A stretch of DNA of 64,000 bases from Catajapyx aquilonaris (taxonomy: Eukaryota), in NCBI GenBank assembly GCA_000934665.2, contig KZ538061.1, positions 62,001-126,000 of the forward strand, read 5' to 3'. The notes beneath the pieces are model-generated. The model had not been told where the DNA came from. It was given only the letters and a program-made list of their open reading frames with translations, and ran no database searches. Shown one piece after another: positions 23,936 through 62,571 of this stretch (position 1 is its first letter; every line of letters starts with the position of its first letter). Both the position numbers and the translations under genes were made by a program.

Positions 23936-26115
23936 TTGTGCTCGGAGGAGCAGAACACAGCAAAATATTGTGATCATTAATATAACATACTTAATATATT
24001 TGGTGAAAAAGACTGACTGAGATTTGGGAGGCAAGAAGCACCAGTATTTTTAACGAGGCCTTACCATCAGTGTTTTGTTCTTAACCATATCATTCAGAAA
24101 GGTAGTGAAAGCTGTCACATTCCATTATTTCAGTTTAGTCACTTTCAAGATGGTGCAATGTGTACATTTAAAGAGCAAACACATATTGCCGAATGTCGTC
24201 AGTTAAATGTCTCGTTGCTTTTTGAAAGATGGGCTTAAAGATGCTATTTAAAGAATTTAGGGACCATTCGTAGATTTTATGTGTTTTAAGCAGATGTATA
24301 TATTCACTTTTAGTTGAGTTGATCTCAAGTCTCATGTGATGTAATACTATGTTAATGCAGTAAATGTGATGTGTTAAGGTCCTTGACTGGAGAAAATTCT
24401 GTACATTTGTGCTAAATGGTGCAATGCTGTAGCCAGAGAAGCTGTTATTGATACCTCCAAAGTGTTGATCTAAGTCATAGAGTGGTTACAAATAATTATG
24501 CAATGTGGTAAGAAGATCTTAACCTGGGAATATTTTGCCTGTTATGTTACCAGTTAATAAGTGGGATTCCAAAGCCAGTTTTTCCTTTCCAAACAGAAGC
24601 ATCGTTAACACTGATGGAGACTTGTTTCTGCTGGGAAAGAGAAACTATGATAGCTTGCATTTTCCTCATTTGTTCAACTGGATATGCTGCAGCCAAATAC
24701 TGCCAGGTTATGATCTTTTAACTAGAGACACATTCCAATGTGAACTGGGCTACTTGGTCTTAACGGTAATACCGTACTTGTTGAAGATTTAATTTTTGAA
24801 AGTGAAAGTGTCATAATAAATACACAAATAAATGAGTTGTATGAGTATTTATTTTTTTTATTTCAGATTACCCAACCTCTTTGCATTGTTATTGATTGTG
24901 AAAATAGATTGAGTGCTTCTGTTTCTTTGTACTTAAATTAAAGGTGGGAATGCAGGAATGCCTAATGGCAATAGCTTATTAGCTCTTGCTAATTGTGATA
25001 TCCAGTATACCATATGTTACTTCATTACTGCACATGTTAAAGCAGATCCCTTGTATTATTGCACACTAATTTTTCGAAACAAGAGAACGAAATCAACTCA
25101 ATGACATGCTAAAGCTTTTGTAAGTTAACTGAATGATGCACCATTTAAGGTAGCTACATGCATTAGCTGATAACATGTCAGTAAGAAGTTTTTGCCATGA
25201 TCCGAGGTGGAGAAGGTGTCTCATAATGCTTCCGACAGCATTCTGTGGTGTACGCGTGTGTGGGATGAGTAGTTGGATATTGGCTAACCATTCTGAGACG
25301 TCATTTCTCTCTGCAGATCCATTATGGATTTGTGAGGTAATTGAGTTCGTTATTCCATCTGCGTCGCGGTTACAGCTTATTCGATCCTTAAATCGCCTCG
25401 GAGATTGCCTGCTACATGTTACACGCAGGGAGTTGAAACTGCTGTGACACCCATCTACATTTTAAAATAAAGGCACTGTCGCATGAAGGGTCGCCTACCT
25501 ACCAGGATATGTTACACCATGTGTTTGAAGGCCATTATCATTCTAATGAGTCCGAAGACCTACCAAGTTACAGTTCTTCACATAATTGGAAGGTGATCAT
25601 CTGGTCCCCATGAGTTTACCATAACGTTGTCGAAAACCACGTGGTTGGGACCACACAGAACAGGCTCGATTAAAATAATATCCGACTTTTACTTGAATTT
25701 AAGCCGACTTTTATTTACCATTCAGTTGGGTGGCAATAACCGCAGTTATTTTAATTTATAGACAAATCAACGCTAAAGGTATGACTGTGTGACATCCGAG
25801 GGTCCCCATAGCAAATTTTCTTCAGGTGGAAAAAATTCCCTACTGTTTCTTGTTGTGTTTTGCCCCTTTGGACCTGAAATGGAATTTACTTTCATTCTTC
25901 TATGGAGTCCTATTCTTCCATCTTAACGGGATGCAGCCAAATTTAGCATGACTTTCGGGTAGAAATGACCACTTTCCCTGGGCCACTCGGAAACAAGATC
26001 TAGGTCACAAGGGGGCAAAAGGGTGCCCATAAAAGGTGAGAGGTGACCGGACATTTGTGTCAGTTGGTGATCACTAAATTTGAAGAAACAGCACCCAGTG
26101 TCAGTCTCAGCAGAT

Positions 26116-26530
26116 ATGGGATCTTCCGTGATGGTAAGGACACATTGTGGCTTCCAGATACTGGAATTTTAATACTCGAGCATTGTTGAAGATATTGGTC
26201 GTCCTGGCGGTGGTGGCCGCAACAATGGCCTACCCTCTGGAGCAAACCCCGGCCGAGGATCGAAGCTTTCTTGGACCGTTTGAGATCAACCCTTTCTTCG
26301 GCTACAGGAAGTTCAAAGAAATCCGCTACGAGCCACTCACAGCTCCGTTCCCAGGGATCATGCCCGTGGCAGGCGGCCCCGGGGTGCCCCCACCACCCCC
26401 ACCTCCAGGTGGATTCGGACCAGGAATGATGCCCAACCCTGTCCACATCCCGCCCCAGATGGCCCAACCATACGGGTCACCTTTCGGCATGGGAGGACCA
26501 GGTGGAATTGGAGGAATGGGAGTCTTTTAG
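26116..26530 (+). CDS. Secreted Pro/Gly/Met-rich peptide precursor, 118 aa (cluster gene 1)
   Basis: CATAAAA at 26028. Exon1 26116-26133 MGSSVM|gtaagg, 58-nt phase-0 intron, exon2 26192-26530 ILVVLAVVAATMA-YPLEQTPAEDRSFLGPFEINPFFGYRKF...PPPPPPPGGFGPGMM...GGMGVF*. AATAAA ~26854. Confidence 0.85.
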
Positions 26531-28635: not shown

Positions 28636-29313
28636 TAATTTGCCTGTGACAAGTGAGTGCTCAGAATTTGAGGCATATGACCCAAGTTACATGCTGGAAC
28701 TTACAGTTGACATTATTTGGCCTAAGTCAAAGTTTGTTGAGTGTTTTACCGCAATTCGGTAACATGCATATAAAAGCAATTTTACCAGGAATAAATGTTG
28801 ATCAAACAATTGACTCTCTCCAAAAGTCCAGATCCACTCGCCTTACATTCAACCCGGCACTTTTACCTCATAATATTTATTTTTCCGGTATGGTTGTTTG
28901 ACTGGTCACGTTCTCTCAGTAAACAAACACCTCCTATGCCATAAGGAAGCCTCCTCTTGACCAACCCACCATTGACGGTAAAGTGCTCTTCCCATGGTTC
29001 CTCCCACGATCAACAAAAAAAAATCAGCAAGACAAGCAACCTTGGCCTCTTTCTCCCCATGAAAGCAAGATCATACCCACTTCCTACATGTGTTTTTTTG
29101 CACATCCTCAAGAGCTCCCTCCCTCGAGACAGTGATCTGTCACTAACATAAGTGATTACTGGTCACCTAGACAGCGGGTGAAACCGCACTGCTTCCATCC
29201 GGGTATAAAAGGAGACGCCTTGAAGTCAGACCATTCTTTTGAAGGACTTGTACGCACTTTCTTCGTGCTCTTCATCAGCTCTATATCTTCGCAGTCTCTT
29301 GTTTTCTTCGGCG

Positions 29314-29971
29314 ATGTTGGTCAAATATTTGGTGAGTACAACGAAGTTGCGTCTGCGGTCCTGCAATTCCGGTCACTATATAAGCGCCTTTGAAGTACTG
29401 TACAATAGAGGGTGATGTCATGCTTGTTGTCCGAAACCACTGTCCTCGTTGTAGCAGCAGGCAAATTTTTTTTGGCCGCAATTTGGACAATGGTCACTGG
29501 CCTCTGTATGCCCTCATAAAGCGATTATTAATAATTTTTCTTGCGGTTAGCGAAGGATGCGACGTGTGCGATTGTGTTTTTTTTTGCGTTATCATGTCCG
29601 TGAGTTGCGTTTTCTTAAGTACGATTACTTCTAGAGTCATGGCCGTAAAGAGACTTTAATTAGGTGCCCCCTACTAGGACTATCCTATTGCGATGACTTT
29701 TTTTTTGAATGGTGCTTTCTAATGTTCTGATTACTTCCTGCAGATTGTGGTTGCTTTTATATTACTGGCGATCATGGGAAGTGTTCAAGAAGTGGAAGGA
29801 ACAAAGCTGAAGAAGAAGTTAAAAAAGTTGAAGGGAAAATTGAAGATCAAGGGTAAAAAGGGTGGTGGTGGAGGATGGAAGAAGGCAAAAGGTGGTGGTG
29901 GATATCACGGATGGCACGGAGGCGGAGGAGGAGGAGGGGGAAAGAAGAAGTACAAAAAGTGGAAGGGATGA
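29314..29971 (+). CDS. Secreted extremely Lys/Gly-rich cationic peptide precursor, 81 aa (cluster gene 2)
   Basis: TATAAAA 29204-29210. Exon1 29314-29331 MLVKYL|gtgagt, exon2 29744-29971 IVVAFILLAIMGSVQEVEG-TKLKKKLKKLKGKLKIKGKKGGGGGWKKAKGGGGYHGWHG8KKKYKKWKG*. Confidence 0.88.
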
Positions 29972-30530
29972 AACACTATATCTGCACTATAATGCACTAC
30001 TAATGCGATATAACCACTGCCTAGCATATAGCAAAAATATGTGTGATGTTGAAACTCCAGTGAATGCATTTTGACATGTTACAGTACTGTAACTTTGCAT
30101 GTGTGCATTTGTCACACGCACATGCCTACATGCCATGTATAGCAGTTGTACTACTGCCATGTAATATCCATTTGTGTACCAATTTTCAAGCCTTTTTTGT
30201 GTTATAAAAGAGTGAAAAAAAATTGTGTCATCCTTTCACACAATAGTCTTACCACTACTAATATCCATGACCACTAGTGCAAATAACAATTTTTTAAACC
30301 TTCACTTCCTTTCGAAAAATATACGGAAGGAAGGAGTTTTGTGCAAAAACTATAGGGGGACACAGGGAGTGTTGAGAAGGGGGAATGAGTTTTTGTCACA
30401 TGATTCGACACACTGTGCAGCCGTCTATGCCTCGGGTATAAAAGAAAACGACGGACTCTGAGGACCATACTCACATAAAGCCCTCAGGAGCCTTTCACTT
30501 AAGTCAGGCTTCTTCAACAGACGCATCACA

Positions 30531-31626
30531 ATGAAGTTACTATCTCTGGTAAGTTAACATTTTCTTTAATTAGCTTGTAAGTTATATTCATATGCCGTAA
30601 TAGGCGTTAAGTCTCATTCTACTGTACTGATAGTGATTTACTTATTTGCAACAAAGCGATGTCAAATTGCGATTAGCGGTAACTGTCGTAAGATATAACC
30701 ATAATGTTGTGTGGTAATACCTGCCACATCTTTCTTACAAAATATGTCCCCCTGACCTATAGTAACAAAATAATGCAATAGGATTATCTTTAAAAAAACG
30801 TAATTAAGTAATCACGTGTGCCTGAATTTCCTTTTATGTCCAAATAAGCTAAAGTGTCTCAAAATCCAGCCTCTGCTGGGAGCACAATCAAGCTTTTATG
30901 CGACAAAATTTGAAAGGCACAGTTGAATGCCTAACCACACTTATTCACGCATTATTATTTCACCCATTTCTGTGTAAAGCGACATGCACGAACTACCCAC
31001 TTCCTGCAGAGCCGCTTACTGGTCTGTCACATTGCTCCAGATAGCTGCACCATGTGAAGACCTGAAACGCAGAACGATTACACTCACATTATGGTCTAAA
31101 TTGAGTCAAGCATTGTGCAATATATTCCTTGGTACAGTCCATCGCTCCATATAATTTATAGACCTCCAAATAAATGGGTGAAAAAATATCATTCTATCTT
31201 GCTGCATCTTCAAGTCCATATTACTCAGAAATTAATAGAGCGATTTGTTCCCACCAGATTCTGGTCCTCCTGGGCGTCATCTCTGCGGTGGTGGCCAGCT
31301 CCTACTCCCTGGAAGATGTGGTAGCCCTGGAGTCGGACTTGCCAACCCTTCTTCGTGTCAGGAGAGGCGGGAAGGGAGGCGGAGGAGGAGGAGGAGGAGG
31401 ATATGGTGGGGGTGGCGGGGGCGGGGGCGGGGGTGGTAAGAAGGGAGGCGGAGGAGGAGGAGGNGGAGGCGGAAAGAAGGGAGGCGGCGGCGGCGGCGGT
31501 GGCAAGAAGGGAGGCGGAGGAGGAGGCGGGAAGAAGGGAGGTGGCGGAGGAGGTGGTGGCAAGAAGGGAGGTGGAGGCGGCGGCGGTGGCAAGAAGGGAG
31601 GCGGCGGTGGCGGGTGGAGGGGGTAA
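30531..31626 (+). CDS. Secreted poly-Gly/Lys peptide precursor with RVRR site, ~128 aa (cluster gene 3)
   Basis: TATAAAA 30437. Exon1 30531-30548 MKLLSL|gtaagt, exon2 31258-31626 ILVLLGVISAVVAS-SYSLEDVVALESDLPTLLRVRR-GGKG9YG...(KKG6-9)n-WRG*. AATAAA ~31683. Confidence 0.9.
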
Positions 31627-33632: not shown

Positions 33633-34929
33633 ATACATAGTCTATGTCTCTATCCTTTAAACGTTGTATAAAAATCTACAATTTCGTAATCTCAATATTT
33701 CATAACGATTCTAATACTAACGTTCACAATACTTAACATTTTGAATTGCCATGTACCAGAGCTGGTTGAACTCCTTGTTACATTTCTGAGACTTTATTCA
33801 GCACTTCCAAAGTGTATCTTTGCCTTTTTCATCCCACTCCTTGAATATGACTATGTTACTGCCTCACACCCGTTTTAAAACTATAATTAAAATATAAAAG
33901 CAGACACCACATAACTCTAGTCCGTTCATTACATTACCCTATATTCATATTTCGCCTGGCCTCCTATTCTCGACAGATGCACATCTCTGAACATCACAGG
34001 CACAGCGCACTACGTGACCTAAATGATTATAAACTTTTTGTTCTGACGCACCTTTGCTGGCCTGACCATGTCCTTGTCTCATGCCATATCATCTTATGAA
34101 CTCATACTTCACGTTAAGGGCCAATGCCAAAAGAAATTGATAGATGAGGCATTGAAAATCAATGACGCACGAGTCCATCTCTACCTTCCTCCAAATTAAC
34201 CTCCTCAAAAGTTTACAAACATATTTCTAAAAATCATCCAGTATTGAAGGAATATTAATTTTAAAAAATTAACACGACGCATCCGCAGTGATTGTCTCGA
34301 ATATTTCCGTGACACACAAGAGCTGAGGCAAACGGCACACATTTTCAATACGGCCACGGCCTTCTGGAACATCATTCTTGCAGCCCTACAAAGGACAATC
34401 CATGTGATGATGAAACCCAGAAGAATGCATTTTGACATCACCTACTGATTACGTGCCTTCGCATGTGTCACTTTGTATATGCACCCAAAAAATTGGGAAA
34501 GGTCATGTAGGCTACTGCATGTCACGTAGAGTAACATGCGAAATTATGTAGCCCATATTCTATAAAGTGCGCATCATAAAGCGTGTGAAAATCGTGTCAG
34601 CCGACGCCTCCATTATCTTCTAATAATTAATGTCCATGACCGCGTGTCCACTGTCCCGCCAAATAATAATGCAAAAAAACAAAAGCGGTCATTCACTTCC
34701 TGTCAAAAATACGGAAGGAGGATTGTGCAAAAGTCTATGCTGGCAATGGGAGGGATTGCTGTGAATGTAAATGAGTTTTTGTCGCAGGATGTAACACACT
34801 GGGCAGTAGCCTTCAGTGAGATGGGTATAAAAAGGCGACAGACGTTGAGGACCATGCAGCACTCATCAAGCCCTCAGGAGCCATTCACATTGGATCCCGC
34901 TCCTTCGAGCGAGGCACTGATCCATCATC

Positions 34930-36146
34930 ATGAAGACTCTGTCTCTGGTGAGTTTTTCCATCGGCCATCATGACCCCTCTTGACCTGGTATTTTCTACTT
35001 ATTTATTTAGGGCGTTGTTAGTGCAATTTTACTACGAATAATAATCATTCTTAACATTAAACCGCAACACTCTGCTGCTGCAATTGCAACATTAATCCAA
35101 ATAATCAGTGTACTTTCCATAAAAAACTAAGCTTGCAGCGTTTGGAATATTCATTTGTAGCCCGTACGATAAATCCAGTGTAAAGTGTGCTGTAGTTGTA
35201 AAAAGTTTCGTAAAATCGTTGTCGTACCGAATATGATAGTACAAAAGTGCTGCTCTAAGTACCTAGAGATTACTTTAAAGGGACACTCAAAAAACAAGTT
35301 TGTCTCTAAAAATCGGGCAAGAAATCATGAATCCGAAGATGCCATCCGTTTTTCGCTACGCGGAACGGTAATCCCAGGGCGAGGGGTCAAAGAGGGGAAA
35401 TTCAAATAGTGCGCTAGAAGCTGGCCGTCGCCAGCGACGCCCTCGGGACCTTCGGAACTGGAGGGCTGCTCCCGCCTCCACGCGCGCTTAGGCCCATCCC
35501 AGGGCGGTGCAGCCCTCCAGTTCCCCTGTTCCCCGCGTGGCGGCGCCGCTCATTAACAGACGGCACACTTTGACACATCGCCCTGGGATTACCGTTCTGC
35601 GTAGCGAAAAACGAATTGCACCGTCGGATTCAGAATTTTTTGCCCAATTTTTAAAGCCAAACTTGTTTTTTGAGTAGAGTGTCCCTTTAACGTATCTAGA
35701 ATATCATGATTACTGACTGATTTCGAAGTGCCTTTCGCCAATAATGTCAACCCTCTATTGCAGTTGCTGTTGTTCCTGGGTATCTTATCCGTAGTGGTGG
35801 CTAGCTCGTATTCCCAGGATGATGTGGTAGCCCTGGAATCGGACCTCCCGACCCTCCTGAGAGTCAGGAGAGGCGGCAAGAAGGGAGGCGGAGGAGGCGG
35901 AGGATATGGTGGTGGCAGAGGAGGCGGCGGAGGGAAGAAGGGAGGCGGCGGCGGAGGAGGATGGAGGAAAGGGGGAGGTGGAGGAGGGGGGAAGNNNNNN
36001 NNNNNNNNNNNNNNNNNNNNNNNNNNNNNNNNNNNNNNNNNNNNNNNNNNNNNNNNNNNNGGGGAGGTGGAGGCGGCAAGAAAAAGGGAGGGGGTGGCAG
36101 AGGTGGTGGTGGGAAGAAGGGAGGCGGTGGTGGCTGGAGGGGTTAG
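34930..36146 (+). CDS. Secreted poly-Gly/Lys peptide precursor with RVRR site, paralog of gene 3; assembly gap inside the repeat (cluster gene 4)
   Basis: TATAAAA 34826. Exon1 34930-34947 MKTLSL|gtgagt, exon2 35764-36146 LLLFLGILSVVVAS-SYSQDDVVALESDLPTLLRVRR-GGKKG7YGGGR...[N gap 35995-36060]...KKGGGGGWRG*. AATAAA 36195. Confidence 0.87.
35279..35686. mobile_element. Kolobok-type non-autonomous DNA transposon (MITE), 408 bp, in the intron of gene 4
   Basis: TTAA|AGGGACACTC... and ...GAGTGTCCCT|TTAA. Imperfect TIRs of ~105-110 bp extend to cggtaatcccagggcga / tcgccctgggattaccg, around a GC-rich core. A TTAA target with purine (AG) termini fits Kolobok rather than piggyBac (CCY termini). Confidence 0.8.
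35995..36060. other. Assembly gap (Ns) within the Gly/Lys repeat of gene 4
   Basis: 66 N bases. The reading frame differs across the gap, so the true gap length is unknown. Confidence 0.95.
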
Positions 36147-36353: not shown

Positions 36354-37151
36354 TTAGACGTAGTAGTAGGCCGGGTAGGCCGAGTAGGCGGCGTAGCCGT
36401 GATGGTATGATGGATAGTACGTCGAATAATAGGTCGGCACGGTGTAGGCGACGTGGGCCACGTGATGGGATGTCTCCTGGTTCTGCAGGGTCTCAACGGG
36501 CTTGGCGGCGTCTCCTTCGGCGGACTCAGTGGCCATCACGGCGGTGAGGGCCAGAGCCAGGACAAACTGAATGCACAGATAGCATGAGAATTAGGCCCTA
36601 CAAATCAATATTAAATAACATATATGCATGGATTGTTATGTTTTTTCCACATATTTTGGATTTGAAAAATGTGGTGTTGCCCATTTCTAACTTGAACTTT
36701 AATACTTAAAAGGAGGACGGCCCGACAATAGCCTCTCGTCATAATACCCATTTCTAACTGGGAAAGGTTGCCATTCAGTTTTTGCTCTTAATTCATTGGC
36801 GTCATATTGATTATACAGGGCCTAGAGCACTTTTCAAATTATAATGTATGTGGTCCTAAGGTTTGACATGTTTTAGCACGTTGGAAATTTTGAATCTAAG
36901 TTATTGTAATATGGTGTAAAGTAATATTGCAATTTTACCCTTAATACAGTACAATCGGCTGTACAAGTTATGTCACAATATCCGAGCTAAGAAGATAATT
37001 ATGTATCTCAGTCTTCTTTCATATGGGATTGCTTAAAAACTTTACCAAGTATTTCCTAATCCCTTTAGATACAAAACACCAGTTTTAACAAACAAATTAA
37101 ACATTAACCACACAACCGCCCCCAAAACCTACTCACCAGAAACTTGTACAT
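36354..37151 (-). CDS. Secreted Tyr/Ala/His-rich peptide precursor, 75 aa, cuticle-protein-like low complexity (cluster gene 5)
   Basis: TATAAAA 37225-37231(-). Exon1 37137-37151 MYKFL|gtgagt, exon2 36354-36566 FVLALALTAVMA-TESAEGDAAKPVETLQNQET-SHHVAHVAYTVPTYYSTYYPSYHHGYAAYSAYPAYYYV*. AATAAA(-) 36225-36230. Confidence 0.88.
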
Positions 37152-47786: not shown

Positions 47787-48166
47787 CCTAGCAGAGTACA
47801 GGACCGTACCAGGTAGCGGAGACTTCTACTGCATTTCCTCATCCATGCTTTTATATGTACAGTACATGTCGCATATTATGCATGGACCCCAAAGTTCAAC
47901 GGTCCCAAATCCGTGCCAAATTCTTTGGTACGGAAATGCCTTTTCAGGAATTCAATAAAACATTGGTGCCACGATTCAGTCAACATTTATTAAGTTACAA
48001 ACGTTGCAACAAATGTTAGTGTGCGAAAACAGTCCGAGTTAGTAAACAACAACAACAACAGAATCAACAACAATGTGAATTTGTACGACGTGCGAGATGA
48101 ATTTCTTTTCTTTTACTATGGGAAGATGAGTGCAAGGTGATGTCGGATGTCAATGTCGGATGAAGT

Positions 48167-49610: not shown

Positions 49611-52600
49611 CCCGGCTTGCGTACTCTCTCTGGTCCGCAGCAGCAGCCTTCTGTAGAGGATGTCGCACAACCCAAGCACCTCCTCTCTTATGTTGCCGAA
49701 AGCTGCTCTCCCGCGATCCTTTTATATGGGTTAGAAATTGGTGCTAAACCTTACCCTGGGCAGTTCTTGTTACCCTGCACCGTTATCGAAGAGACATAGG
49801 GTGAAGGTAGCCACTCAACCAGGTCAATGGGCAGGGCTACTTCTTGCGTCGGAGGCCTATAAAGATCCTACATACCGTGTTCCTACAGGTTCAAATGGGA
49901 GGAGATCGGGTGAAAACTGGGATGCAACTTTCATCTTTCTCCTTGTCTCGTGTACGGTGTGTGTTTTTGTTGTTTAGCTGCTGGGTGGGTGGGTCAGGAG
50001 GGGGGTGTTGAAGAGGAGGATTCCATGACAAAACCGGAACACGCCTGGTAATTGAAGAGGACAGATGAAACTGGAAAACCTTTCTCTCTCATCTTCACGC
50101 AACACGGATTTTCTTTTTGCCACTGATCCGTTTTCTTCTATAGGTTTTTAACACCCTTAACAATCCTTGTTTTTGGTGATATCTATAGTGGGTGACCCGG
50201 AATTTTTGGAGGGATGACCCGAGTTCTATCTTTCTTATGGATAGATCCGACGTGAGTGCAAGTGCTCGATCCTTTAACCCACTTTGGTATGCCCTTGCCG
50301 CAGGTGACGACCCACTTCACTCTATCTCTTCGAACTGTGCCATCGTTCGGATGAAAAAATTGCTTCTGGAAAAGAAAAAAAAATGTTTCTCCGGCTTTCT
50401 GGGGCCCGTGGTTCGCTTTCTTTTCAACCGGAAAAAAGGAAATCGACAGCGGATTAACTCGTCTTTACAGTTATATTTGAAAGTGTAGAAAAAAATACAT
50501 TCGCTCTCGAAATTAATCACTTGATAAGTTAATGTAACACTGCTGTTATGCTATAATGTAATGCGTGGTACGTGAAGTTTATATTATTTTTAATACTCCT
50601 TGCTGCCCATCGCAAGAATTCAAAAAATACTGTGACATTTTTCATTTCTGATGGTGTAGTCTATAGCAGTAAGGTGAGAACTACTGCAAATAATAATCAC
50701 TGGAGATATTGTCACAATAGCATTTGGTGTACTTGTTTGAAGAAATATTTAAATTTTTATCTCTTCTTGCATAAGCCTTCTCATAAGTGTAAGTTAAATA
50801 ATATTGCATGATGTTTACGTGCCTTAAATTATTTCAAGAAGAAAATCACTCTGATTACGCTACACGTAGAAACTGATGAAATAGCAAAATTGTACAAAAT
50901 GATAGCAATAACTATGCAATAGTATAATAAATTCAATTGAAATGACGTGTCATGTCAGTAACATGATAATTAGATACATGCTGTTTTGTCTTTCTATTTA
51001 AGTTATATTGAGCATGTCATCAGTTTCATTTTGCGAACTACGTATTACGTATATTAACACCTACACATTAAATTACTTAATTAAAACTACAGTCTACTAA
51101 AAACCTATATTTTCATTGCATAAATCTAAAAGAATAACTGCTGGGTGACCAGCAGTTGCACATGACCACACTAATGTCGACTAATGTACTGTTAATATGA
51201 GATTGTAATTTATGCACACTTGAGGGACCGCATTCCTTCCAGACAAAATCTCTTGCCAAACCACTTTTGCGAATAAATATCTAGATTCGCAAAATGGATA
51301 GAAGAAGCAGCATACTGAACGAAAGCAAAAGTGTACTTGGCCATTTCCCACGCTAACTGGACTGACTGAATGGCTCCCAGCCAGCACCAGGCCAATTACT
51401 TTTGGCCGAAAATGTAGCGGGACTTTTTGCACATGATGGGATGCAAAAATGATGTTCCCTGCTGGCGGGAAGCATGCAGAAAGGAGGTTTCCATCCACAA
51501 GAGTGCACATTTTCCCAAGCCGGAATCTCAAGATATTCGAGTTAGGTAACAAAGTGTTTCCCAGTTGACCTTAAGCCAAAGTGCATTGCGAAAAAGGGCG
51601 CCGCCGTGACACGTGAACATTTCCGTTAATCCATTGTTTCCAGTCAAACATTTCTCACATGGCGTGAATTCTCCTCGTGAAAATTTCGCATAACAGTAAT
51701 AATCACCTTTACTCTCGTATGTGATTGTTGTGGTGATAAGACCGATAAGCGATTTTGCACGTGCCGAACTGTTCACACGGCGTGTACCAGCCCATAATTC
51801 ATCCGATTCCATTGTTTGGTGTTTTACAAGTGTGTGAGCTGCAAGTGTGGAGCTACTGTGAGCTTGCCTACACCGTAATTATTGTACTGTGTTGAACTTC
51901 ATGCAAAATTTATAAAACAAGATCGCGAAGGGAAGAGTGATTACACTATTGTAATACTAGCAACTAGCAAGTATACCTAGTGGAGAATTTTCTCGAATAA
52001 GCAAATTAGAAGCTATTCTAAATCCCAAAAAATTACATTCCAAGCAGGATAATGATATGAATTAAGTGCAATTGCAAGTACTTGATCATAATCATTATGT
52101 AGGTATTTAGATGCAATAGGCGTGTTCGTGTTTCAAAGTATTTCATGTCACAGAAACAAATAGACATTCACGCAAGAAAAACGACTAGGTAGGTTTGTAG
52201 GTGTGTAGGACAGATTGCAATTTGCAGGATGCCAGTCATGCTATAGCACCGGTATTAAGTTATTAAGGTCTTGCTAGTCTTCCGATACAAAAAAAATTAG
52301 AACGCTATCTACAAAACAATTATTCACAATACCTGTTCTCGCTCTCCATTTCTTTTCGATTTTTTTTCTTTTTCTTTTTTTTTTTTAAAAAAAGAAAGAA
52401 GCCGCTCCACAAAAGTGCCCTCCTGGTGAAGTGGGTCAAAATTTCCATTCACGATGCATCAGGATGGAAGCCTGTACCTCATCAGGTTCATGAACCACGA
52501 AGGGCAATGAGGGATAAGGAGAAGGATAGACGAAGTGAAGGATTGATCCTGTCACTTTTGAATAAATTAATAATTTTGCACTTGTTGGATGAATGCCCTA

Positions 52601-52844: not shown

Positions 52845-53526
52845 TTACCAGACTTGCTGCCTGTACCAAACGTGCGGTCTGTAGTTTGAGTCTCCATAAA
52901 CCGAGGTGGGTCTGTAGTAGCTGCCGTAAGTGTACTGGTACCGCTGAGTAGGACGAGCTGCCAGAAAAGTGGGCCACATCCAGCCGGCCGCCTTCAGGTC
53001 ATCCTCAGGAGCATCCTTGACCTCAGGTGCCTCTGGCCCTTGCGGCAACGCACGAGTCAAAACGATGCCGATCACGGCCAGCACCAATATCTGCGGCACA
53101 AATGAGAATAATTATTATCACAAATGGTGCTGTTAAGTCGTTTTATTATAGCTTTAATTTTATTGCATTGCACTGTACTTTTGTACGCTGGGTTGTGGTA
53201 AAATGATGAGTTATCTCTGACTCACATGGACCACCGGATGTAACAGTGCACATTATAAGTTACATTAAAAATCATTTCAGTTACTAAATTCCAGCATGGA
53301 TATCATTACAAGAGTTATCAGATGTATAAGCAACATTAAATATCTACATCTATCAATAAGATAATGTCATTTTCTACATTTCAAACTGTTTTGTTACAAG
53401 CAATGGTCAATTGAGATTTTTCTGCACAAAATCTCAATTTATCTCATAACCGTGGTCCTGATTATTAATTGTTATTGTACTATTTGCACTTTTCCATATT
53501 GTGAAGCCACTTACCACAGATTTCAT
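52845..53526 (-). CDS. Secreted Tyr/Arg/Trp-rich peptide precursor, 85 aa (cluster gene 12)
   Basis: TATAAAA 53660-53666(-). Exon1 53515-53526 MKSV|gtaagt, exon2 52845-53090 ILVLAVIGIVLTRA-LPQGPEAPEVKDAPEDDLKAAG-WMWPTFLAARPTQRYQYTYGSYYRPTSVYGDSNYRPHVWYRQQVW*. AATAAA(-) ~52763. Confidence 0.88.
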
Positions 53527-56500
53527 GGCTCCTCTGCTGTATTTTAGATGACCTATAACACCCTCTACCACCAGCACACGATCGGAGCTACTTTTGGATG
53601 GTTCCTTCCGGTGGGCCTTTTTTAGTCCAGGTGAATCAAGGAGACGAAACCAGGCACCCTTTTATATCTTGGGACCAACCCTCGACCTTGGAAGTCTGGG
53701 TTCCCGAGATAGTCTTTAAATTCCAAGCATCAACCCCAACCAACCCAGGGTGGGTAATTAATTGCCCAAACTGAAATAAATGATCCTTGGCATCTGATGC
53801 ACGTGCTCACCATGGGGTATAGACAGGGTCCTTAATAGCACTTAGCTCCTGTCATATACTCTGGGTCCATCTCAGGTGATTTCTCACCCACCTGTTACCC
53901 ACGTGCTCTGTTCTCATTCCTCCCACCACTAATTCTATTCAACGACCGATTTTCAAGCCACGCAAGGCTTTGGGAATACTTAACATGGGCACTAGAATAT
54001 TCTGTATGAACTGAACTTGATTATTAAATTTGAGTCCTATGTGCATTATCATAATAAGAGCAATATTGTAGTAATTTTTAAAATTTCTGCATGCTTTGTC
54101 TTACACGCGTGTCACCTCTTCTCCGAGCTAGTCAGCATATTTTGCCTTCGTACAGTACAAGTGTACATGGCGGCCAATTTCCAGGTGCACTGAGGTATGC
54201 TTCGCTGGTTGTCTAGTAGGTGGCAGCATCATTCACTGCGGATGTCTTGAAATTGCAATATGATAGCAAAATGTGCAAGAACTTGAGTAACTCACGCTTC
54301 CAGTAACTCCGTTAATATTATAATGACGCATAATTTTGTAACACTTCAATGTGATTATCAAACTAGCTTATTATAATCCTTTTGCATGTGAATATTTTCA
54401 TGAGGCAGGTCGCAGGTACAGGCATATTTGTGTAGATGTCACTTCATGCTGATAATAGTGAGCTGAAAATTGTGAGAAATAAAAATGGTTTTTAAACTGT
54501 TATTTCAAACGGAGAGTTCTCGTATTAGTAGCATGCTATAAAATGTTCAAGCGAGCTACCACATGCCCTTTATTTTATGGCTGTTGCGATTATTATATCA
54601 GAAAATAGCTTAAAGTAATCGTGATTAAAAGGAGGAAATAGTAATTAAGCCTAATGCCTTTAGATATGCTTGACTTGTACAGTAATGTGTTCATCATGAA
54701 GAACGGGTTCCACTGCTACTAAATATGTGCAAACTTTCTCCTTTATTAATAGAGAGGTGTTCATCATGGTGTGGGCTTTATTTTTACATAATAAGAAATA
54801 CGATAGGTGTACAGCAAGGTCCGCATCAGCTGCCCAAGAGATTGTTTAATTTCACTCCAAATATTTTCTTGATCATAATTATTAGTTGAACGTTGCACTC
54901 AATATCATCAGTTGCTTACAACATCAAACATATATCATTCCCTCTCCGTGCATCAAACCAGCACTCCAGATGATCATCCATGGTCATGTGCGACGGCGAG
55001 GAGTCCTTATCTTAGTATTACTTGCGGTTTCATTAGTCATCGCTGTCCTTGAAAGAAAATGTCCTGATGTAATGAATGACTTATTTTAAAGTTTTTATAG
55101 CTTGATTTTATAGTGATTGGTAAAAATTATAATATTCAAAATTATTACGATATGTTTTTAAGAAAGAGAAACTACAGGAGTGCAAAAATTATGGGCGCGT
55201 GCGTACCATTTTTACAAGATATAATCTTAATTGAAATGAATATGTGCTTTATTATGAGTTTATGACTGTGTTTAAAATTAAGCCAAGAAATGAAATAGTA
55301 TTGTAGTGAATTTCTGGGATCTCATCAGGAAATGCTTGTACGTTATGGGTTTTGATTTCATGTTACGTATGTTTGTATAAGTTTTCAGTGCAATACCTCT
55401 ATATGATCAAAGTCTAGGAATGTAACGTGTGCACCGCTATAGTCAATAATAATGCCGTGTTTAAGCGTGAGAGGCCGCCTTTTCTTGACGAGAAAGTAAA
55501 ATTTTAATATGCCTAATCTAAGAGTCATCTAAGTTAGTCATGGAATTGTGTAATATCAAATCCTTCGGTCAGGGTACCTAGAATCCCTCCACATAAAAAT
55601 GGGCTAAACAATATGAATGCTAATTGCAATCAATCACATTTGCCTCACAATGGAGTTCTCATTTCGACCTTTATTATGTTACAGTGTATTGGCCTGTTAC
55701 ACAACAGGGGAGAGTAATGTAAAGACTAATGATTATTAAATTATTGTTGTTATATCAAGCAGACGTATAAATTACTGGAGTAATTAATTATGAACCAGAT
55801 GTAATATTTGGAAGGCCATTAATGCACAATGGTTTTGAGTGGAAAATCTCTCATAAAGACAACGGAAAGGCACTTTTCCTTGCACATATGCAACCCTTCA
55901 CACTCATCCCAATGGAAAGCTGTATCCTAGAACGTATGTAACCGTTCTGGCATTAAACCTAACCTGTTTTGAGCGTGGTAATAACTGTTTTAAAATGTTT
56001 TATCAACTCTAATAATTATTTTCACTGATCTGTAGCGTGTAACTTAAGGTGTAACTGCTCATTGCTCTATGAAAATGAAATACTACTTACAATATAAAAA
56101 AATTCGTACACAGTTCAAAGAATTCAATTATTCTGCCAACACATATACGTGGTCATACCTGGTCACACGTTTTGGCTCACCTCTTCAACAAACCGGAGGT
56201 CAACTTTTTTGTGATGATTTTTCTGGTTTGGTTTACACGTGTCCGTTGTACAGGATATACTAGATTCCAATGTCTCGTAACCGGTAAAAATGACGCAATT
56301 TCTATGCCTTCTGCATTCTCAATTCCGGAATTTACTTATCTGGGAAGGTAGGCCATTTCTTAAAAGTCTTCTCGAGTTCATTCTTACACACTTACCTGTT
56401 ACGAGGTCAATGCCAAGGATATTACACTTTTTTTTTACCTGTCAGCTCAGGGTCAAGGTAAGAAAGATGACGTCCACGTTATCCCAGTCTTCATCCTGAT

Positions 56501-56821: not shown

Positions 56822-57529
56822 TCACGTCTGACGCCACTTTTTGCCTCCACCGCCGTGACCGTGACCTCCGCCTCCCTTCTTGCCACCCTTTTTGTTGCCC
56901 TTGCCCTTGTTCTTCTTCTTGTTCTTCTTCCTCTTCTGCTTCTGGGCCTTCTTGCCGTAAACTCCCTTGTAGGTGTGTCCCTTCACGCCCCAGCCATATG
57001 GACCTTTGCTCTTGTGGCTGTACACCGGGTAGTGACCTCCTCCGCCACCGTGACCTCCGCCGCCGCCGCCGCCTCCGTACCTACAAATGCAGTCAGTAGC
57101 AAATTGCATTTGTTGCAAAAAAATCCATGCTCACTTACTTAACAACAATAGGACGCCACCACATCCAGTCGGCGGTGTCCAAATCTGTCTCCAACTCTTC
57201 CTTTTCGCCATCTCGCTGACCCCATGCTATCGTCGCCAGGACGATCAGCAAGGAGCCAAGGAGCTGTGTGAACAAATAATAAAAAAACAGCAAGTTAACA
57301 TCTGACCTAACTGGCAATTGACCAACTGTACCGTTACAGTTAGCACTCACTGCCAAATTTTTTTCGCAAAATTTAATTTTAAAAATAAATTGCGAGATAG
57401 GCAACAATTTAACACCAAACTACAAAAAATTAAGTCCACGCACTAATTTTTGCACGATGGTTTCCATAAATACACGCGCGATATCACTGTTCCTGCTTGT
57501 GGTCACCAACTTACCACCAGTCTCATCAT
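56822..57529 (-). CDS. Secreted Gly/Lys/His/Tyr cationic precursor, 132 aa, 3 exons (cluster gene 13)
   Basis: TATATATAA 57668-57676(-). Exon1 57515-57529 MMRLV|gtaagt, exon2 57139-57263 LLGSLLIVLATIAWG-QRDGEKEELETDLDTAD-WMWWRPIVV(K) ending phase 2, exon3 56822-57080 YG8HG5HYPVYSHKSKGPYGWGVKG...KQKRKKNKKKNKGKGNKKGGKKGGGGHGHGGGGKKWRQT*. Confidence 0.88.
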
Positions 57530-60500
57530 GTTTTCTCAGCTAGTCCTCCCCACAACCACTGGCCCAAATGGTAGTGTCCCCCACAACTGATGTAATCCCA
57601 CAAAGCTCCTCAGGTTCCCCGTTGGACACCGGAGGAGATACGCCGGCAACAGCCCCCAACAACAGCCTTATATATACCTTCCTCTTCACCCCCCGAGACA
57701 CGCCAAGAAACAAGAATCGCAGACTTGATAATTCATCTGAACGTGAGGCCGAGACTTCCGGAATTGGTGGAATGTTTCACGCGCGAATCTTTCCCATGAA
57801 CCGTTAATAAAACGCATGTAGGTGGGGATTACTAAAGGGGAGGGGTCCAATTCCTATCAATTTTTTAGGGGGGTCTTAGAGCAAGTCTAAAGGGCGCGAA
57901 GTTTAAGTCCCGCATATTGTTGAGGATATAGTTTTTTTTTTATGTCTTCGGCTCTTTTTTTCTCCACCCTCCCACCTCTTACATCGTTTTGACCTATTGG
58001 GTTCGTCGTCGTTCTGAAAAAAGAAGAAAAAAAAGGGCCAGCCAATGATGAGGTTGGATGTTTAGCGGGGTCGTGGAGTCTCCTGCAGGAAACCGCTTGC
58101 TTCCTGGAGTCAATGGCCTCAACTGTGGTGGTTGGTGCCTTCCAGATGCCAGCTGGCTGGATGGCCCAGACCTTGCTCCAAGGACCAATGCTCCCTGGGT
58201 TCATGTCCAGTCTCACCCTGTTTGCCTCCCCCGAAGACATCACACGAGCTGACCATTACGACGTGGAGGCCGCGCTGAGGTCATCCGCACCCACGCCACG
58301 TCTTGCGGCTTTTCCGACGCACAACTTGCGCCATTAGTGCGGCACTCTTTGTGAATCACGTGCGATGGGGCTTATTAGAGGGGGGAACGTAATAATTTGC
58401 AATCAACTGAGACTGTCAATTGCCATTTTTGATGGATGTCGTCAAACCAAAATGGTACATCCAGATGTGGGTGCAGCAATGTTTACAATGCATAATCCGA
58501 TGTAATAAGACAAAAACCGGTCTTTAGTACAGTAGTTGCTATTAACTTTGGTTTTAAGGTGACGACTGATCTTTAGTCGGGATCTTTGTTGCCATCAGCA
58601 TCAATTTGTAGAAGCAATGAAACTAGTTGGAATGACAAATATGGCAGGGTTTACTGCATGTTTAGCTACTAAGTAGCGTTGATCTCGTGACTTTAGATCA
58701 TAGAATAATATTAATGCTTTCCCGGATTTGTTGGCTTTCTTTTTCAAACCAAAGTCGTGCATGTCATCAAGGCTACCGGAATGACCCATTTCCAATGCCC
58801 TGAGGAGCAACATTAAGCTATTTTTTTGAATCCTTTTGCTACCTGAATCCGTTCAGCCTAAATAGTCTTCCAGCTACGATATAACCTGAAAAAGAGGCGA
58901 ACTTAGAATGATTACACTGATGCAGTTATTGTGATGTGCGTAGGGTTTTTTTAACTGTTTATTCGTTGAATAGCTCCATACATTTTTATTATCGAGTTTG
59001 ATTTTCAATCAATTCCTAGAATGCAAGTGCATCTCTGGGAATAAACTGGTTCAATAAAGGTTCAACTTCTTGAGGTTTTCATTTGGTGATGATGGTGTGT
59101 ATATAAAAGAGCAATCAGCAATCAAAATAGTTGTGCCTCAATTTCCAAAAACATCGGGATTGCCTCAATGATTGACTGATGTCTGATTAATTAAAGTACC
59201 AAAATTCACTTACATCCTTCATGCAAACTGTGATGATGGAAACACTAAACTACTGGTCATGAAATCTGAAGCCGAATTGAAAATAAAATCTCCTTACATT
59301 TGTTTAGTATGGAATAAGTTGAGAAGAGAGGACTTCGTACCTCTCTATTTTCATAAAAATTCAGCAAAAATTGCAAAAATGTTTGCACCACAAACAAAAA
59401 ACTACATCAACCATTCCATCGTGACAATGCTAAGAAACAACGAAACTCCATAATTTGACTGATAATACGCAACATTCCATCCTCCTGGAGCATGTCTGAT
59501 GTCATCCAATTCTCCCGCCGATAATGCATGACATCTTCCGTTTTTTTTCTGCCCTGCTGGGAAACCGGAGAAGAAGAAACCACACCTCGAAAATGATGCA
59601 TCCCCGAGGCTACCAAGCCTCATTAGAACCTCGCCATTGCAAGAGTTCAAGGCAGTAAAACTATGCATCCTCAGCGGTATTATCAAGCAATGCAGCAGGC
59701 AATGACTTTACAGCTTTTGACAACAGGAAATGCTGCCCCAATAGTTTTACGATGTCATATAGAATGTGTCACACTTTTTTTTTTTTACTATTTCGATTCC
59801 CTTTTCTAGGTATGGAAAATAACCTAAGACAATATAATTCATGAAAAAAAGGAGGAGCTATAATAGAAAATTCGTCCACTTTTCCTTCATACATGTATTC
59901 GGGGCAGCATGTCACTAGCTTACATTATGTCCTTTTCAGGAATAACAAAAGGAGGACTCTTTGATATCCGTTTTTCTACTGAAGCAGTAGCTGGAACCTT
60001 GACCGTTGTGCTGGACTGGTTCTTGGAACACACACAACAAACCGGATCCTCAAACACCACCGAGACTTGCACGTGCAGTGAATTGGGAATGGATTGGAAA
60101 AAATTCCGATACATGTTAACACCCGTTGAAAAGTGATGCCTTTCGTTAAGACCCGTCGTAAAACCCGGTTGTACTATCAGGTACAGGGCTTGAAACCTAA
60201 GCAATATCTGACCTCCGCATTACTTGGCACGAGGTCATCTGGAAGGCTAATACGGATCCATCCCACTTTTGTGATAAGCTCTTTTTTATTCTAACACCCA
60301 AAGTATTTCAGTAGGCTGCAGTTCCTGGAGAAATGTAGGTCCACGTCAAACACTCCTCTTAACCCAATTTTTGATCTCGTTACTGGTGCTGGAATGGTGT
60401 GAATTACCATGCTTTTTTTGATACAAATATGGAGTCTCCCTCGAAGCAACTTTTACTTTCGAGCTGGTGCCATGTGGATGCTAAAATTAGATACCGGCTC

Positions 60501-60642: not shown

Positions 60643-61638
60643 TTAGACTTTAAAAAATGTTTTCAAAACAGGATTTAGGTTGGGGAAAATATCAAGCTGA
60701 ACAAACCCTCCTCCGTAGATGCTGATACCAACAGGGAATATTAGAAATTCTGATTCTTGCATTGTTTCCTTTTCCTCCGCCGCAACTAATGCGACCAGAA
60801 GGCTCAGGCAGTAAAGAAGCTGCACAAGTATAAGTTAAATTACTTCAAATAATTTTTTTAAATGTAAATGTCGGAGTGTATGCACAGTATTTAACTTACG
60901 GCAATTGATGCTCTGCAGAGCCTGTCCATGGTTTGCTTCTGTTTTGATATATTTTGTCTCTCTCAGACCGCTTATATAGTCATTTGGAAGGCCAGATTTT
61001 TCGGGTTGTTTTTGGTTTTTGGAACCCAACTTTCGAAATATTGCGACATATACAAGCCTTGGTGCAATACTGAAATTGACTCAACTGATAAATGTTGTGA
61101 TGAGTCGGGTCCAAGACACATATTTGTGTTACTGGAGCAAAAATGAAACATTTATGCGTAATGAATATTTCATAGTAACCACTCCTTGGATATAGCGAGG
61201 AAACGCCACGCAGTCGCCGGAAAACACCTAACGTCACTTGCACCTGGAAAACCTGCTTTGTGGAATTTTTGGGCTGTATACAACCGTAGGCCTTGCTTAG
61301 GATGTTGGTAGCAAGTTTTTCTGGAATAAAAGTAGCTGTGATTTGCTGGGTCTTGAGAGACTTTTACTATCGCCATTTTCAAGTCTTGCATTGGAGAAGG
61401 CATGCAGGATGAGCTATAAAGACACCATCAACCTAACGTGATCACTGATCGTTCCACGTGCATATTTCAACACTGCGAATTAATTATGTCCACATTTTCA
61501 AATCGATTCTAATTTCCATAAACTGTTGCAATTAAATCTCACAAAACTATGATTTTTATTGCAGAAATTTTATTACTGTGGCAGAATATCAAGGGAGGTA
61601 CTTAGGCCTACCTCATGCAAACGAATTAATTTGGCCAT
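60643..61638 (-). CDS. Secreted acidic-pro / hydrophobic peptide precursor, ~67 aa (cluster gene 14); first coding exon tentative
   Basis: Exon 60643-60819 after ttgtgcag: LLYCLSLLVALVAA-EEKETMQESE-FLIFPVGISIYGGGFVQLDIFPNLNPVLKTFFKV*. AATAAA(-) ~60564. Candidate start exon 61612-61638 MAKLIRLHE|gtaggc. TATATAAA 62049-62056 with a donor at ~61927 suggests an extra 5'UTR exon. Confidence 0.7.
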
Positions 61639-62571
61639 ATTTGCTAAGTAGCGTTGACAGTGGAAAAGTGAATCTCGTTTAGGTCTGTACTGTCTGAATT
61701 TTATGTCAACAGACCAACCTACTTATTGAATACCGTTTTCAAAACAAGTTAGGCTAACGATACGTTGCTGACGTTTTGCAAAATACAAGTCAGGAAGTAG
61801 GCCCACCTGTCTGGAAACGAAGTAATAGGCCTACTCTACACTCCTCAATTATTTTTCACATCATTACGGCTAAATTCCCCATAATTATTTGGCAATTTTA
61901 AAATTTAAAAAAAAAACTGAAGCCCACCTTATATGGAGCCCTTGATGGTCTTGGCACCACACACAACCTTCTCAGCTGAATAGAATAACTGTGGTCATTT
62001 TTATAAAACTGGTAATGTATGGGCAAGTCCTTGTTACTTAGGCAGAGTTTTATATAAGTCGGGCCACAGTCGGGCCATGCATCTAACATGTCAAGAGCAC
62101 ACGACACAGGCACGTATTAAGTTCATTCTAAGGCCGTGAGAAAATTACTTTGTTTCTAAAGTGTCTGAACTATTACCACTTCGTGACCTCATTACGCCCA
62201 AAAGCTACCGTACTAGTAATGGGAGTCATGTGACCTTGTCAATGATGCCGTTAATTATAAATGTAATATGCCACACAGAACTCATGATACTGCCAATATT
62301 GATTTTAATCCTCCGAAACTAACATTAAAATTGTTCATTATTAAGGTACGTTTGAAAAGGTCGCTATTATGAAACGTCGTAAGAGTGAGGCCTTCTGAAT
62401 TGCGATTAATTAAACGAAATAAATCTATATCTAATATTCTATTTTAATGAATGCATAAATTCATTTTTAGTTTCTGTTATTGAATGCCATCTTTTTATGT
62501 GTCATATTTTAAGCCTGCATTTACTATTTTGACTTACGTTTCCTATACATTGTTGACCACACATTTTACAC

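Follow-up and report, generated by a model that had tools for sequence, protein, structure and literature searches.

What kind of genes lie behind a run of tiny coding exons, each followed by an intron and then by a reading frame that opens with a hydrophobic run, in a 64-kb stretch of contig KZ538061.1 (assembly GCA_000934665.2, positions 62,001 to 126,000; this whole stretch, numbered from 1, is called the window here)? The best reading is that the window carries an array of at least 15 tandem genes of two or three exons, apparently driven by TATA boxes, whose predicted products are small secreted proteins of low complexity. The array begins 2.2 kb downstream of SLC35F5, 11 of its 15 genes point the same way, and it probably extends past the end of the window. 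The gene models, g01 to g15, and all their splice junctions are predictions from sequence; secretion, tissue of expression and matrix function are inferred in the same manner. The models are as follows (aa, amino acids; nt, nucleotides).

26028..26530, forward strand: g01; TATA-like CATAAAAG at 26028, exon 1 26116-26133 (MGSSVM), exon 2 26192-26530; predicted product of 118 aa, rich in Pro, Gly and Met (24% Pro, 19% Gly, six Met).
29204..29971, forward strand: g02; TATAAAAG at 29204, exon 1 29314-29331 (MLVKYL), exon 2 29744-29971; predicted product of 81 aa, rich in Lys, Gly, Trp and His, with the C-terminus KKWKG.
30437..31626, forward strand: g03; TATAAAAG at 30437, exon 1 30531-30548 (MKLLSL), exon 2 31258-31626; predicted order signal peptide, acidic propiece with terminal RVRR, (Gly7-11 Lys2) repeats, final WRG.
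34826..36146, forward strand: g04; TATAAAAA at about 34826, exon 1 34930-34947 (MKTLSL), exon 2 from 35764 to the stop at 36146, broken by a 66-N gap (35995-36060) after which the frame terminates in GGGGGWRG.
36354..37231, reverse strand: g05; TATAAAAG at 37224-37231, exon 1 37151-37137 (MYKFL), exon 2 36566-36354; predicted product of 75 aa with a tail rich in Tyr, His and Ala (22% Tyr).
39784..40406, reverse strand: g06; TATATAAA about 89 nt upstream, exon 1 40317-40309 (MSW), exon 2 39978-39784; predicted product of 67 aa with two Cys (C-x10-C) close to the C-terminus.
40858..41336, reverse strand: g07; TATAAA 76 nt upstream, exon 1 41260-41246 (MDFYK), exon 2 41064-40858; predicted basic peptide of 73 aa with an internal GKR site.
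41997..44600, reverse strand: g08; TATAAAAC 107 nt upstream, exon 1 44493-44479 (MKTIP), exon 2 44119-43973 (signal core and acidic piece with terminal KSDLE, donor GTAGGT), predicted exon 3 42923-41997 (308 aa, about 42% Gly or 130/308 codons, also rich in Trp, Lys and Ser).
45564..46751, reverse strand: g09; TATA-like TATTTAAA 93 nt upstream, exon 1 46658-46644 (MTKIL), exon 2 45896-45564; predicted product of 115 aa with an acidic N-terminal piece, a tail of 23% Tyr and the C-terminus HWGK.
47304..47855, reverse strand: g10; TATAAAAG at 47848-47855, exon 1 47786-47766 (MLPKLLL), 210-nt intron, exon 2 47555-47304; predicted product of 90 aa with a Gly-rich and aromatic tail.
48167..49726, reverse strand: g11; TATAAAAG at 49719-49726, exon 1 49610-49596 (MKTLL), exon 2 49227-49153 (terminating in KGDLD, donor GTATGT), predicted exon 3 48367-48167 (rich in Gly, Trp, His and Lys).
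52845..53666, reverse strand: g12; TATAAAAG at 53659-53666, exon 1 53526-53515 (MKSV), exon 2 53090-52845; predicted product of 85 aa with the acidic piece EDDLK..GWMW and then a Tyr/Arg/Pro tail.
56822..57676, reverse strand: g13; TATATATAA about 147 nt upstream, exon 1 57529-57515 (MMRLV), exon 2 57263-57139 (carrying ETDLD..DWMWW, phase-2 donor GTAAGT), 58-nt intron, predicted exon 3 57080-56822 (rich in Gly, His, Lys and Tyr).
60643..61638, reverse strand: g14; exon 2 60819-60643 (58 aa, hydrophobic, Phe-rich), with two options for the first exon, 61638-61612 (MAKLIRLHE, donor GTAGGC) or 60929-60900.
63318..63704, reverse strand: g15; TATAAAAC about 79 nt upstream, exon 1 63625-63611 (MKAFL), exon 2 63550-63444, exon 3 63366-63318, with introns of 60 nt and then 77 nt (phase 2); predicted product of 56 aa with the C-terminus GFGFGLFPGFYGGWWW.

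The first coding exons are 9-30 nt long (median 15), and intron 1 is in phase 0 in 15/15 genes. All mini-exon peptides of at least four letters were found at their expected places with GT directly after each (13/13), and a GT[AG]AG donor follows 12 of them, the exception being MAKLIRLHE. When the MSW mini-exon, at 40317 on the reverse strand with the donor GTAAGT, is included, the overall figure is 13 of 14. Every mini-exon has a phase-0 acceptor that leads straight into a hydrophobic run. Of the 14 genes originally noted, 11 have a canonical TATA[AT]A at a distance of 69-147 nt before the ATG; g01, g09 and g14 (with the start first proposed for it) have TATA-like boxes, and TATA[AT]A is also present at g15 and at an alternative start of g14. 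At the other end of the genes, AATAAA or ATTAAA was found within 400 nt past the stop in 13 of the 14 assessable cases; g02 has neither, and g04, for which the distance was measured from the gap, was not counted.

These signals were compared with chance expectation. A scan for TATA[AT]A 40-160 nt upstream of an ATG that is followed by 1-8 sense codons and GT[AG]AG returned 12 distinct sites (13 with a nested ATG), all located at 29.3-63.6 kb, with nothing before 26 kb, whereas the same pattern occurred on average 1.57 times, and at most five times, in 30 first-order Markov simulations of the window. A stricter scan, in which a pyrimidine-rich acceptor and an uncharged hydrophobic start of exon 2 were added, gave 13 matches (nine cluster genes, three alternative starts of those genes, and one site outside the cluster at 24088), versus 0.5 matches per run in 20 simulations. 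The excess over chance amounts to about 8-fold in the first scan and about 18-fold in the second. The TATA-containing sequence TATAAAAG occurs 12 times in the window against 3.6 expected, a number reached in none of 100 shuffles; six of these belong to cluster promoters, and the remaining six have no mini-exon downstream. The highest Kyte-Doolittle mean over any 10 residues of the spliced N-terminus reaches 2.79 or more in 15/15 genes, while only 4.4% of 181 control reading frames that start with ATG in the window reach 2.5. A Lys or Arg is found among the first eight residues in 14/15. Because hydropathy is uniformly high and an early basic residue is almost always present, the mini-exon is, by prediction, the n-region of a signal peptide, and exon 2 opens with the predicted h-region.

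An earlier, sequence-only reading of the window had described at least 14 genes of this build between 26028 and 62056, with a phase-0 intron just at the signal-peptide core and a TATA element about 65-140 nt upstream of the ATG in 13 of them. All 14 first exons are indeed present, 13 of them with the GT[AG]AG donor, and the position of the intron holds throughout. The promoter claim stands in part, as the box is canonical in 11 of the 14 genes and only TATA-like in g01, g09 and g14. The array also reaches further than had been proposed: g15, at 63.6 kb, is newly found and lies beyond that range. For g14 the proposed start, MAKLIRLHE, does exist, but its donor is GTAGGC, unlike those of the other 13, and a better first exon is predicted at 60929-60900 (MDRLCRASIA), which has TATATAAG about 49 nt upstream, an ACCATGG start context, a GTAAGT donor and an 80-nt intron.

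Three further models deserve comment. Exon 2 of g08, g11 and g13 stops a few codons beyond a good donor, and an in-frame low-complexity open reading frame (ORF) can be reached via a good acceptor; for these reasons the three genes are likely to have three exons, and their low-complexity part most likely lies on the third. The 308-residue Gly/Trp/Lys/Ser ORF at 42923-41997 is therefore assigned to g08 by an inferred join of exons 2 and 3, and the mature protein would have about 343 aa, with 38% Gly, 9% Trp, 15% Lys+Arg and a net charge of about +35. Within the Gly tracts G predominates at the first two codon positions, with a mixture at the third, which marks the Gly frame as the coding frame, that of g08 included. 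Intron 1 of g01 has only 58 nt and a weak acceptor, TTGTTGAAG; such a length is plausible in this genome, because introns of 58-80 nt recur in g13, g15 and the alternative g14. The exon-2 ORF of g09 has an in-frame ATG near its start, from which translation could begin without the mini-exon. The repeat lengths of g03 and g04 are uncertain, since the 66-N run falls in the Gly/Lys repeat of g04 and a single N (31464) in that of g03.

What would these genes encode? In 10 of the 15 predicted proteins the signal peptide is followed by an acidic piece, a 22-residue stretch with a net charge of -3 to -6, and beyond it the charge of the remaining protein ranges from neutral to strongly basic, with a maximum of +39 in g08. 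The members fall into several compositional groups. In g02, g03, g04, g08, g11 and g13 the mature part has 29-67% Gly, with Lys, plus Trp, Tyr or His every 2-20 residues; the tail charges of the cationic members span +7 to +39, and Trp reaches 14%. Tyr accounts for 22-23% in g05 and g09, and g12 is rich in Tyr, Arg and Pro. The predicted products of g10 and g15 are Gly-rich and aromatic, and that of g14 is hydrophobic and Phe-rich. Cys is absent from 12/15 mature parts. Nine members are not simple repeats.

Kinship among the members was analyzed by shuffling for all 105 pairs. Over the 40 residues past the signal peptide, g03-g04 (z = 14.9) and g12-g13 (z = 6.2) stand out; the latter pair shares ..DL..[GD]WMW. 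The comparison of g03/g04 with g13 gave z of about 5, a value that Gly runs may inflate. In the signal peptides similarity was found for g03-g04 (z = 11.8) and g08-g11 (z = 6.1), and the tails of g08 and g11 share a 60-nt stretch of 82% identity (repeat family D5). At the DNA level, the only matches between the 15 gene regions outside g03/g04 are GGN repeats, so a single family cannot be demonstrated. As judged from sequence, g03/g04, g08/g11 and g12/g13 are the only demonstrable paralogue pairs. A motif [S/T/G/D]-D-L in the acidic piece of g03, g04, g08, g11, g12 and g13 hints at a common origin but proves nothing. The shared layout is therefore an architecture that spans at least three small sub-families and several singletons.

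The g03/g04 pair was the one pair in which selection could be tested. Their DNA is alike over the promoter, the 5′ untranslated region and the coding region, and the first introns have no blastn similarity. Over the first 46 codons the synonymous divergence (dS) is 0.65 and the non-synonymous divergence (dN) 0.19; the values for the propiece are dS 0.64 and dN 0.13. Within the propiece, 20 consecutive codons (DVVALESDLPTLLRVRRGGK) differ by seven synonymous and no non-synonymous changes. On these results g03 and g04 are old duplicates under purifying selection, which extends to the RVRR convertase-type site. Intron 1 of g04 contains a 108-nt inverted repeat (35285-35392 and 35568-35675, 88% complementary, 175-nt spacer) that may be a small foldback or an insertion resembling a miniature inverted-repeat transposable element; such an insertion would in part explain why the two introns cannot be aligned.

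To which organism do these genes belong? The window is eukaryotic DNA with a GC content of 35-50%, and its only ambiguous positions are the 66-N gap and single Ns at 31464 and 1176. Its left part contains the neighbour of the array:

17205..23932, forward strand: SLC35F5 (nucleotide-sugar-transporter-like), nine exon pieces found by tblastn with a termite SLC35F5 query.

Within it the Pfam model EamA matched at 20883-21170, sub-threshold, in a scan of ORFs of at least 95 aa. A search with an 82-residue exon of the gene retrieved 32 proteins with arthropod SLC35F5 on top, the best of them at 71-74% identity; the top matches are from a termite, a katydid, a stick insect, a cockroach and a beetle (64-74% identity over this exon), and the insects are followed by decapods, a millipede and amphioxus. 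In a maximum likelihood tree of 26 rows, built on a 430-residue concatenate of tblastn pieces, the SLC35F5 of the window clusters with insects (support 100/96) and falls outside the sampled clade of beetles and polyneopterans (support 100/97), with a best identity of 66%. As the sampling of the tree was limited to matches of the exon search, the safe statement is that the window is from an arthropod, closest to insects among the sequences sampled. A metagenome scan with the same exon gave a single 1.9-kb contig of 57% identity, which is too short and too distant for use, and in the Atlas this exon led to no usable taxon. The observed/expected ratio of CpG is 0.40 at SLC35F5 (16001-24000), versus 0.64-0.80 in the bins of the cluster and 0.64-0.84 across the rest of the window. 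In invertebrates mosaic CpG depletion is expected, with methylated bodies of housekeeping genes and unmethylated tissue-specific genes, and the values suggest that the SLC35F5 gene body is methylated and the cluster is not. In the 17 kb upstream of SLC35F5 (1-17000) no Pfam-recognizable coding ORF of at least 95 aa was found; the GC content there is 43-49%, and the GC skew is negative all along. The Rfam scan of the window gave one tRNA and nothing else:

62731..62802, reverse strand: tRNA-Ser (anticodon GCT), between g14 and g15 and hence within the array (Rfam 36.5 bits; also found by ARAGORN).

The predicted proteins were then compared with known families. At E≤0.1, 15 of 16 exon translations gave nothing in Pfam; the sole Pfam match of any member is a sub-threshold one of g04 to the plant GRP family (22.5 bits against a cut-off of 30). 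No match was obtained for 11 pieces at E≤10, a search from which short motif matches could escape, as the HMMER filters drop most matches above E of about 0.1. In 55 of the 75 ORFs of at least 95 aa in the window, a search at E≤0.01 gave only EamA, DUF1473 and MLVIN_C, all sub-threshold. The neighbours of g05 in the Atlas are a nematode peptide family (0.84), an arthropod 'cuticle protein 16.5-like' (0.82) and a 'vitelline membrane Vm26Ab-like' protein (0.81), together with a Retinin_C-bearing cluster (0.80 and 0.75); all of these lie below 0.9, where a similarity is no more than a lead. The promoters revealed little in common: in the 15 of them the search for a shared element gave nothing convincing besides the TATA box, and GGGTGAA is present in five, compared with 15 occurrences in the window as a whole. 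The sequence YCAAGGYCR, which we take to be an FTZ-F1-type nuclear-receptor site as used by moult-regulated cuticle genes, has two exact sites in 64 kb, at 46769 (g09) and 53691 (g12), both on the reverse strand and 15-25 nt upstream of the TATA boxes of these genes; 0.19 are expected in promoters, and the observation, made post hoc and in 2/15 genes, is a lead only.

The explanation that we tentatively favour is that the array encodes lineage-restricted extracellular-matrix proteins of the low-complexity kind that lacks the Rebers-Riddiford (R&R) consensus, belonging to cuticle, eggshell or a similar secreted layer. It is preferred because the gene architecture and the arrangement in an array match those of cuticle genes, the composition of several members is that of CPG proteins, the Cys-poor make-up with Tyr, His and Lys would suit cross-linking, and mature g08, at about 343 aa, is large for a defence peptide. 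As sticker-and-spacer polymers, the proteins would self-associate and condense following secretion by means of aromatic and cationic residues set apart by Gly, and Tyr, His and Lys would then be available to oxidative or quinone cross-linking. A number of results weigh against a matrix. The R&R chitin-binding model PF00379 gave no match in any Pfam search, and an R&R consensus pattern gave none in the six frames of the window. The Retinin-like domain PF04527 (CPLCA) was not matched in the Pfam searches either, nor were the GYR/YLP models PF02756 and PF02757 at E≤10 in the Tyr-rich g05, g09 and g12. Word-based homology searches gave nothing at E≤0.01 for g01 (111 candidates) and g09 (one candidate), and an exhaustive phmmer search of 1.84 billion representatives with g12 gave two matches at E≤0.001, both of them repetitive, junk-like translations by inspection. 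Since no homologue of g01, g09 or g12 was found, the link to cuticle is one of gene architecture and composition only. Cys is present in g06, g07 and g09, and the long Lys runs, with net charges up to about +35, look peptide-like rather than matrix-like.

The remaining objections to a matrix are at the same time those that speak for a host-defence arsenal. According to this alternative, which we hold possible but somewhat unlikely, the genes encode precursors of cationic Gly/Trp/Tyr-rich antimicrobial peptides; the anionic propiece would neutralise the cationic peptide until furin-type or dibasic cleavage, and several products would be C-terminally amidated. The order signal peptide, acidic propiece, RVRR and Gly/Lys polymer in g03/g04, in which propiece and RVRR are kept by purifying selection, suggests a processed bioactive peptide. 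C-terminal Gly in g02, g03 and g04, C-terminal Gly-Lys in g09 and the internal GKR of g07 point the same way; RVRR, C-terminal Gly and Gly-Lys are possible processing marks. The highly charged, Trp-containing tails (+7 to +39, up to 14% Trp) and the orphan status of g01, g09 and g12, as expected of fast-evolving genes, are also in keeping with defence. The promoters of g01 and g09 contain three copies of the kappaB-like motif GGGRAYYYYY (0.56 expected), although the statistics are weak. Over the 15 promoters, however, neither kappaB sites (GGGRNNYYCC, one against 1.6 expected) nor GATA sites (seven against 11.7) are enriched. Some members are not cationic, namely g01 (Pro/Gly/Met), g05 (net charge of about 0, Tyr/His/Ala) and the hydrophobic, aromatic g14 and g15, and the size of g08 also tells against a peptide. 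Glycine-rich antimicrobial peptides are an accepted class in arthropods (tenecin-3, in the available part of PMC2853521), but the mini-exon layout is documented for cuticle genes, and the introns of Nasonia antimicrobial peptide genes lie elsewhere (as far as the available parts of PMC2259329 and PMC2853521 go). Another gland secretion (adhesive, cement, saliva, silk-like material or egg glue), co-secreted and set by coacervation, is distinctly unlikely. Drosophila glue genes do have a small intron inside the signal peptide, and chemically complementary members (Tyr-rich, Lys/His/Trp-rich and Pro-rich) are neighbours here. The sticker-spacer pattern and the polarity of anionic head and cationic tail are those described for tick GRP77 in the available part of PMC11794139, but the host is neither tick nor barnacle by the SLC35F5 tree, and the identical features suit cuticle equally, so that sequence alone cannot separate the two. 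That the models are not genes, or are mostly dead genes made up of stop-free GGN repeats and chance ATG..GT pairs, is highly improbable: several frames on both strands are open across the repeats, and the searches with g01, g09 and g12 found no homologue, but against this stand the 8-fold and 18-fold excess of signals, the hydrophobic core right at the acceptor in 15/15, the selection on g03/g04 despite diverged introns, the codon-position structure of the Gly tracts and the nine non-repeat members. Mollusc shell-matrix or byssus proteins, sandcastle-worm cement and the vertebrate SCPP cluster were dropped as candidates once SLC35F5 had placed the window in an arthropod.

Matrix proteins remain our preferred, tentative explanation, and the array may well be functionally mixed. 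A more specific scenario, which we regard as doubtful, is that an ancestral cassette (TATA box, mini-exon, and an exon for signal peptide and acidic propiece with [S/T/G/D]-D-L) was repeatedly duplicated, each copy with a new low-complexity tail, to yield either a co-secreted cation-pi coacervate of Trp/Lys/Gly, Tyr-rich and Pro-rich proteins or a Gly/Trp/Lys class of defence peptides. Neither such a coacervate material nor such a defence class is known to us from hexapods or their close relatives.

With respect to the claims made at the outset, the observation is confirmed and extended, and the interpretation partly supported. The varied chemistry of the mature regions that had been noted is evident in the Gly/Lys/Trp/His, Tyr-rich, Pro/Gly/Met, hydrophobic and C-x10-C groups, and the statement that no folded domain could be recognized agrees with the lack of any Pfam family at threshold for any member. 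The idea of one shared chassis is right in that the layout is common to 15 genes, but this layout is not peculiar to the cluster, and kinship could be shown in three pairs only. The analogy that had been drawn with frog-skin peptides and conotoxins is unneeded, as arthropod cuticle, chorion and cement genes are closer. Hence the most striking part of the finding is explained away, the chassis being the normal build of arthropod cuticle-type genes. The interest that is left lies in a compact set of 15 orphan predicted secreted proteins of unusual Gly/Trp/Lys and Tyr-rich chemistry, with at least one pair whose propiece, bearing a convertase site, is selectively maintained. With first coding exons of no more than 9-30 nt, genes of this type often escape automatic annotation. 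As matrix proteins, the products would bring a Trp/Lys sticker-spacer chemistry to the known arthropod extracellular materials; as defence peptides, they would show a scaffold of cuticle genes reused in immunity.

How does the array compare with known systems? Silkmoth chorion genes and Drosophila glue (Sgs) genes are clustered, have a tiny first coding exon with the intron inside the signal peptide, and encode low-complexity arms rich in Gly and Tyr. Chorion proteins also have a conserved central domain and divergent paired promoters, whereas neither was seen in the array and 11/15 genes are co-oriented. Glycine-rich antimicrobial peptides of arthropods include acanthoscurrin, ctenidins and armadillidin; the predicted products of g02, g03 and g04 resemble this class, by description, in their signal peptide, cationic Gly polymer, few aromatics and C-terminal Gly (possibly an amide). 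Many array members, however, are non-cationic or far larger, and the layout of wasp genes differs: in the part of the Nasonia study available, introns of defence-peptide genes follow the signal peptide or interrupt the mature peptide (PMC2853521). The cement protein GRP77 of ticks has, in the portion of its description available, a negative N-terminal and a positive C-terminal part with Gly-spaced cationic and aromatic residues, and it phase-separates by cation-pi and pi-pi contacts and later ages to a gel (PMC11794139). Array members are likened to it by description, as they are predicted to be secreted, disordered and Gly-rich with an acidic N-part, a basic C-part and Gly-spaced stickers; the stickers of GRP77 are Arg and Phe/Tyr, whereas those of the array are Lys and Trp/Tyr/His, and the host groups with insects, not ticks.

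The closest likeness is to the CPR, CPG and CPLC arrays of An. gambiae, Drosophila and Bombyx. These, like the genes of the window, are tandem, have a TATA box, a mini first exon within the signal peptide, a phase-0 intron and two or three exons, and encode Cys-poor low-complexity proteins, rich in Gly, Tyr, His, Pro or Ala, that can be aligned only over short motifs. The array differs from cuticle proteins in that no R&R or cuticle-associated Pfam model was matched, its Trp and Lys contents are unusually high, acidic propieces occur, RVRR is conserved in one pair, and no homologue was found for g01, g09 and g12. CPG proteins are defined compositionally by glycine repeats of the GXGX/GGXG type (PMC12426002); such repeats are present in 6/15 members (g02, g03, g04, g08, g11 and g13), which marks a compositional class and not descent. 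The families CPLCG, CPLCW and CPLCP are each recognized by a conserved block of their own, with two invariant Gly, an invariant Trp and a Pro-rich stretch, respectively. Their distribution is given as limited to Diptera, mosquitoes or Lepidoptera (PMC12426002), whereas the host falls outside the sampled pterygote clade in the SLC35F5 tree. About 75% of the Drosophila CPR genes are in tandem arrays, according to the available part of PMC2793513. For An. gambiae, the accessible text of PMC2259329 gives mostly two-exon CPR genes with first exons of 3-36 nt (median and mode 12), an interrupted signal-peptide region in 86% of the genes with introns, TATA plus initiator (INR) elements in 93%, and phase 0 for 96% of RR-2 introns; the same text states that this build is not exclusive to CPR genes. 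A first exon of 3-36 nt inside the signal peptide, phase-0 introns and a TATA box are likewise what the 15-gene array presents. Because the host is an arthropod and this layout is, in the part of that study available, what has been published as the rule for arthropod cuticular-protein genes, there is nothing new in the architecture; it is the ordinary architecture of arthropod secreted structural genes of the cuticle type.

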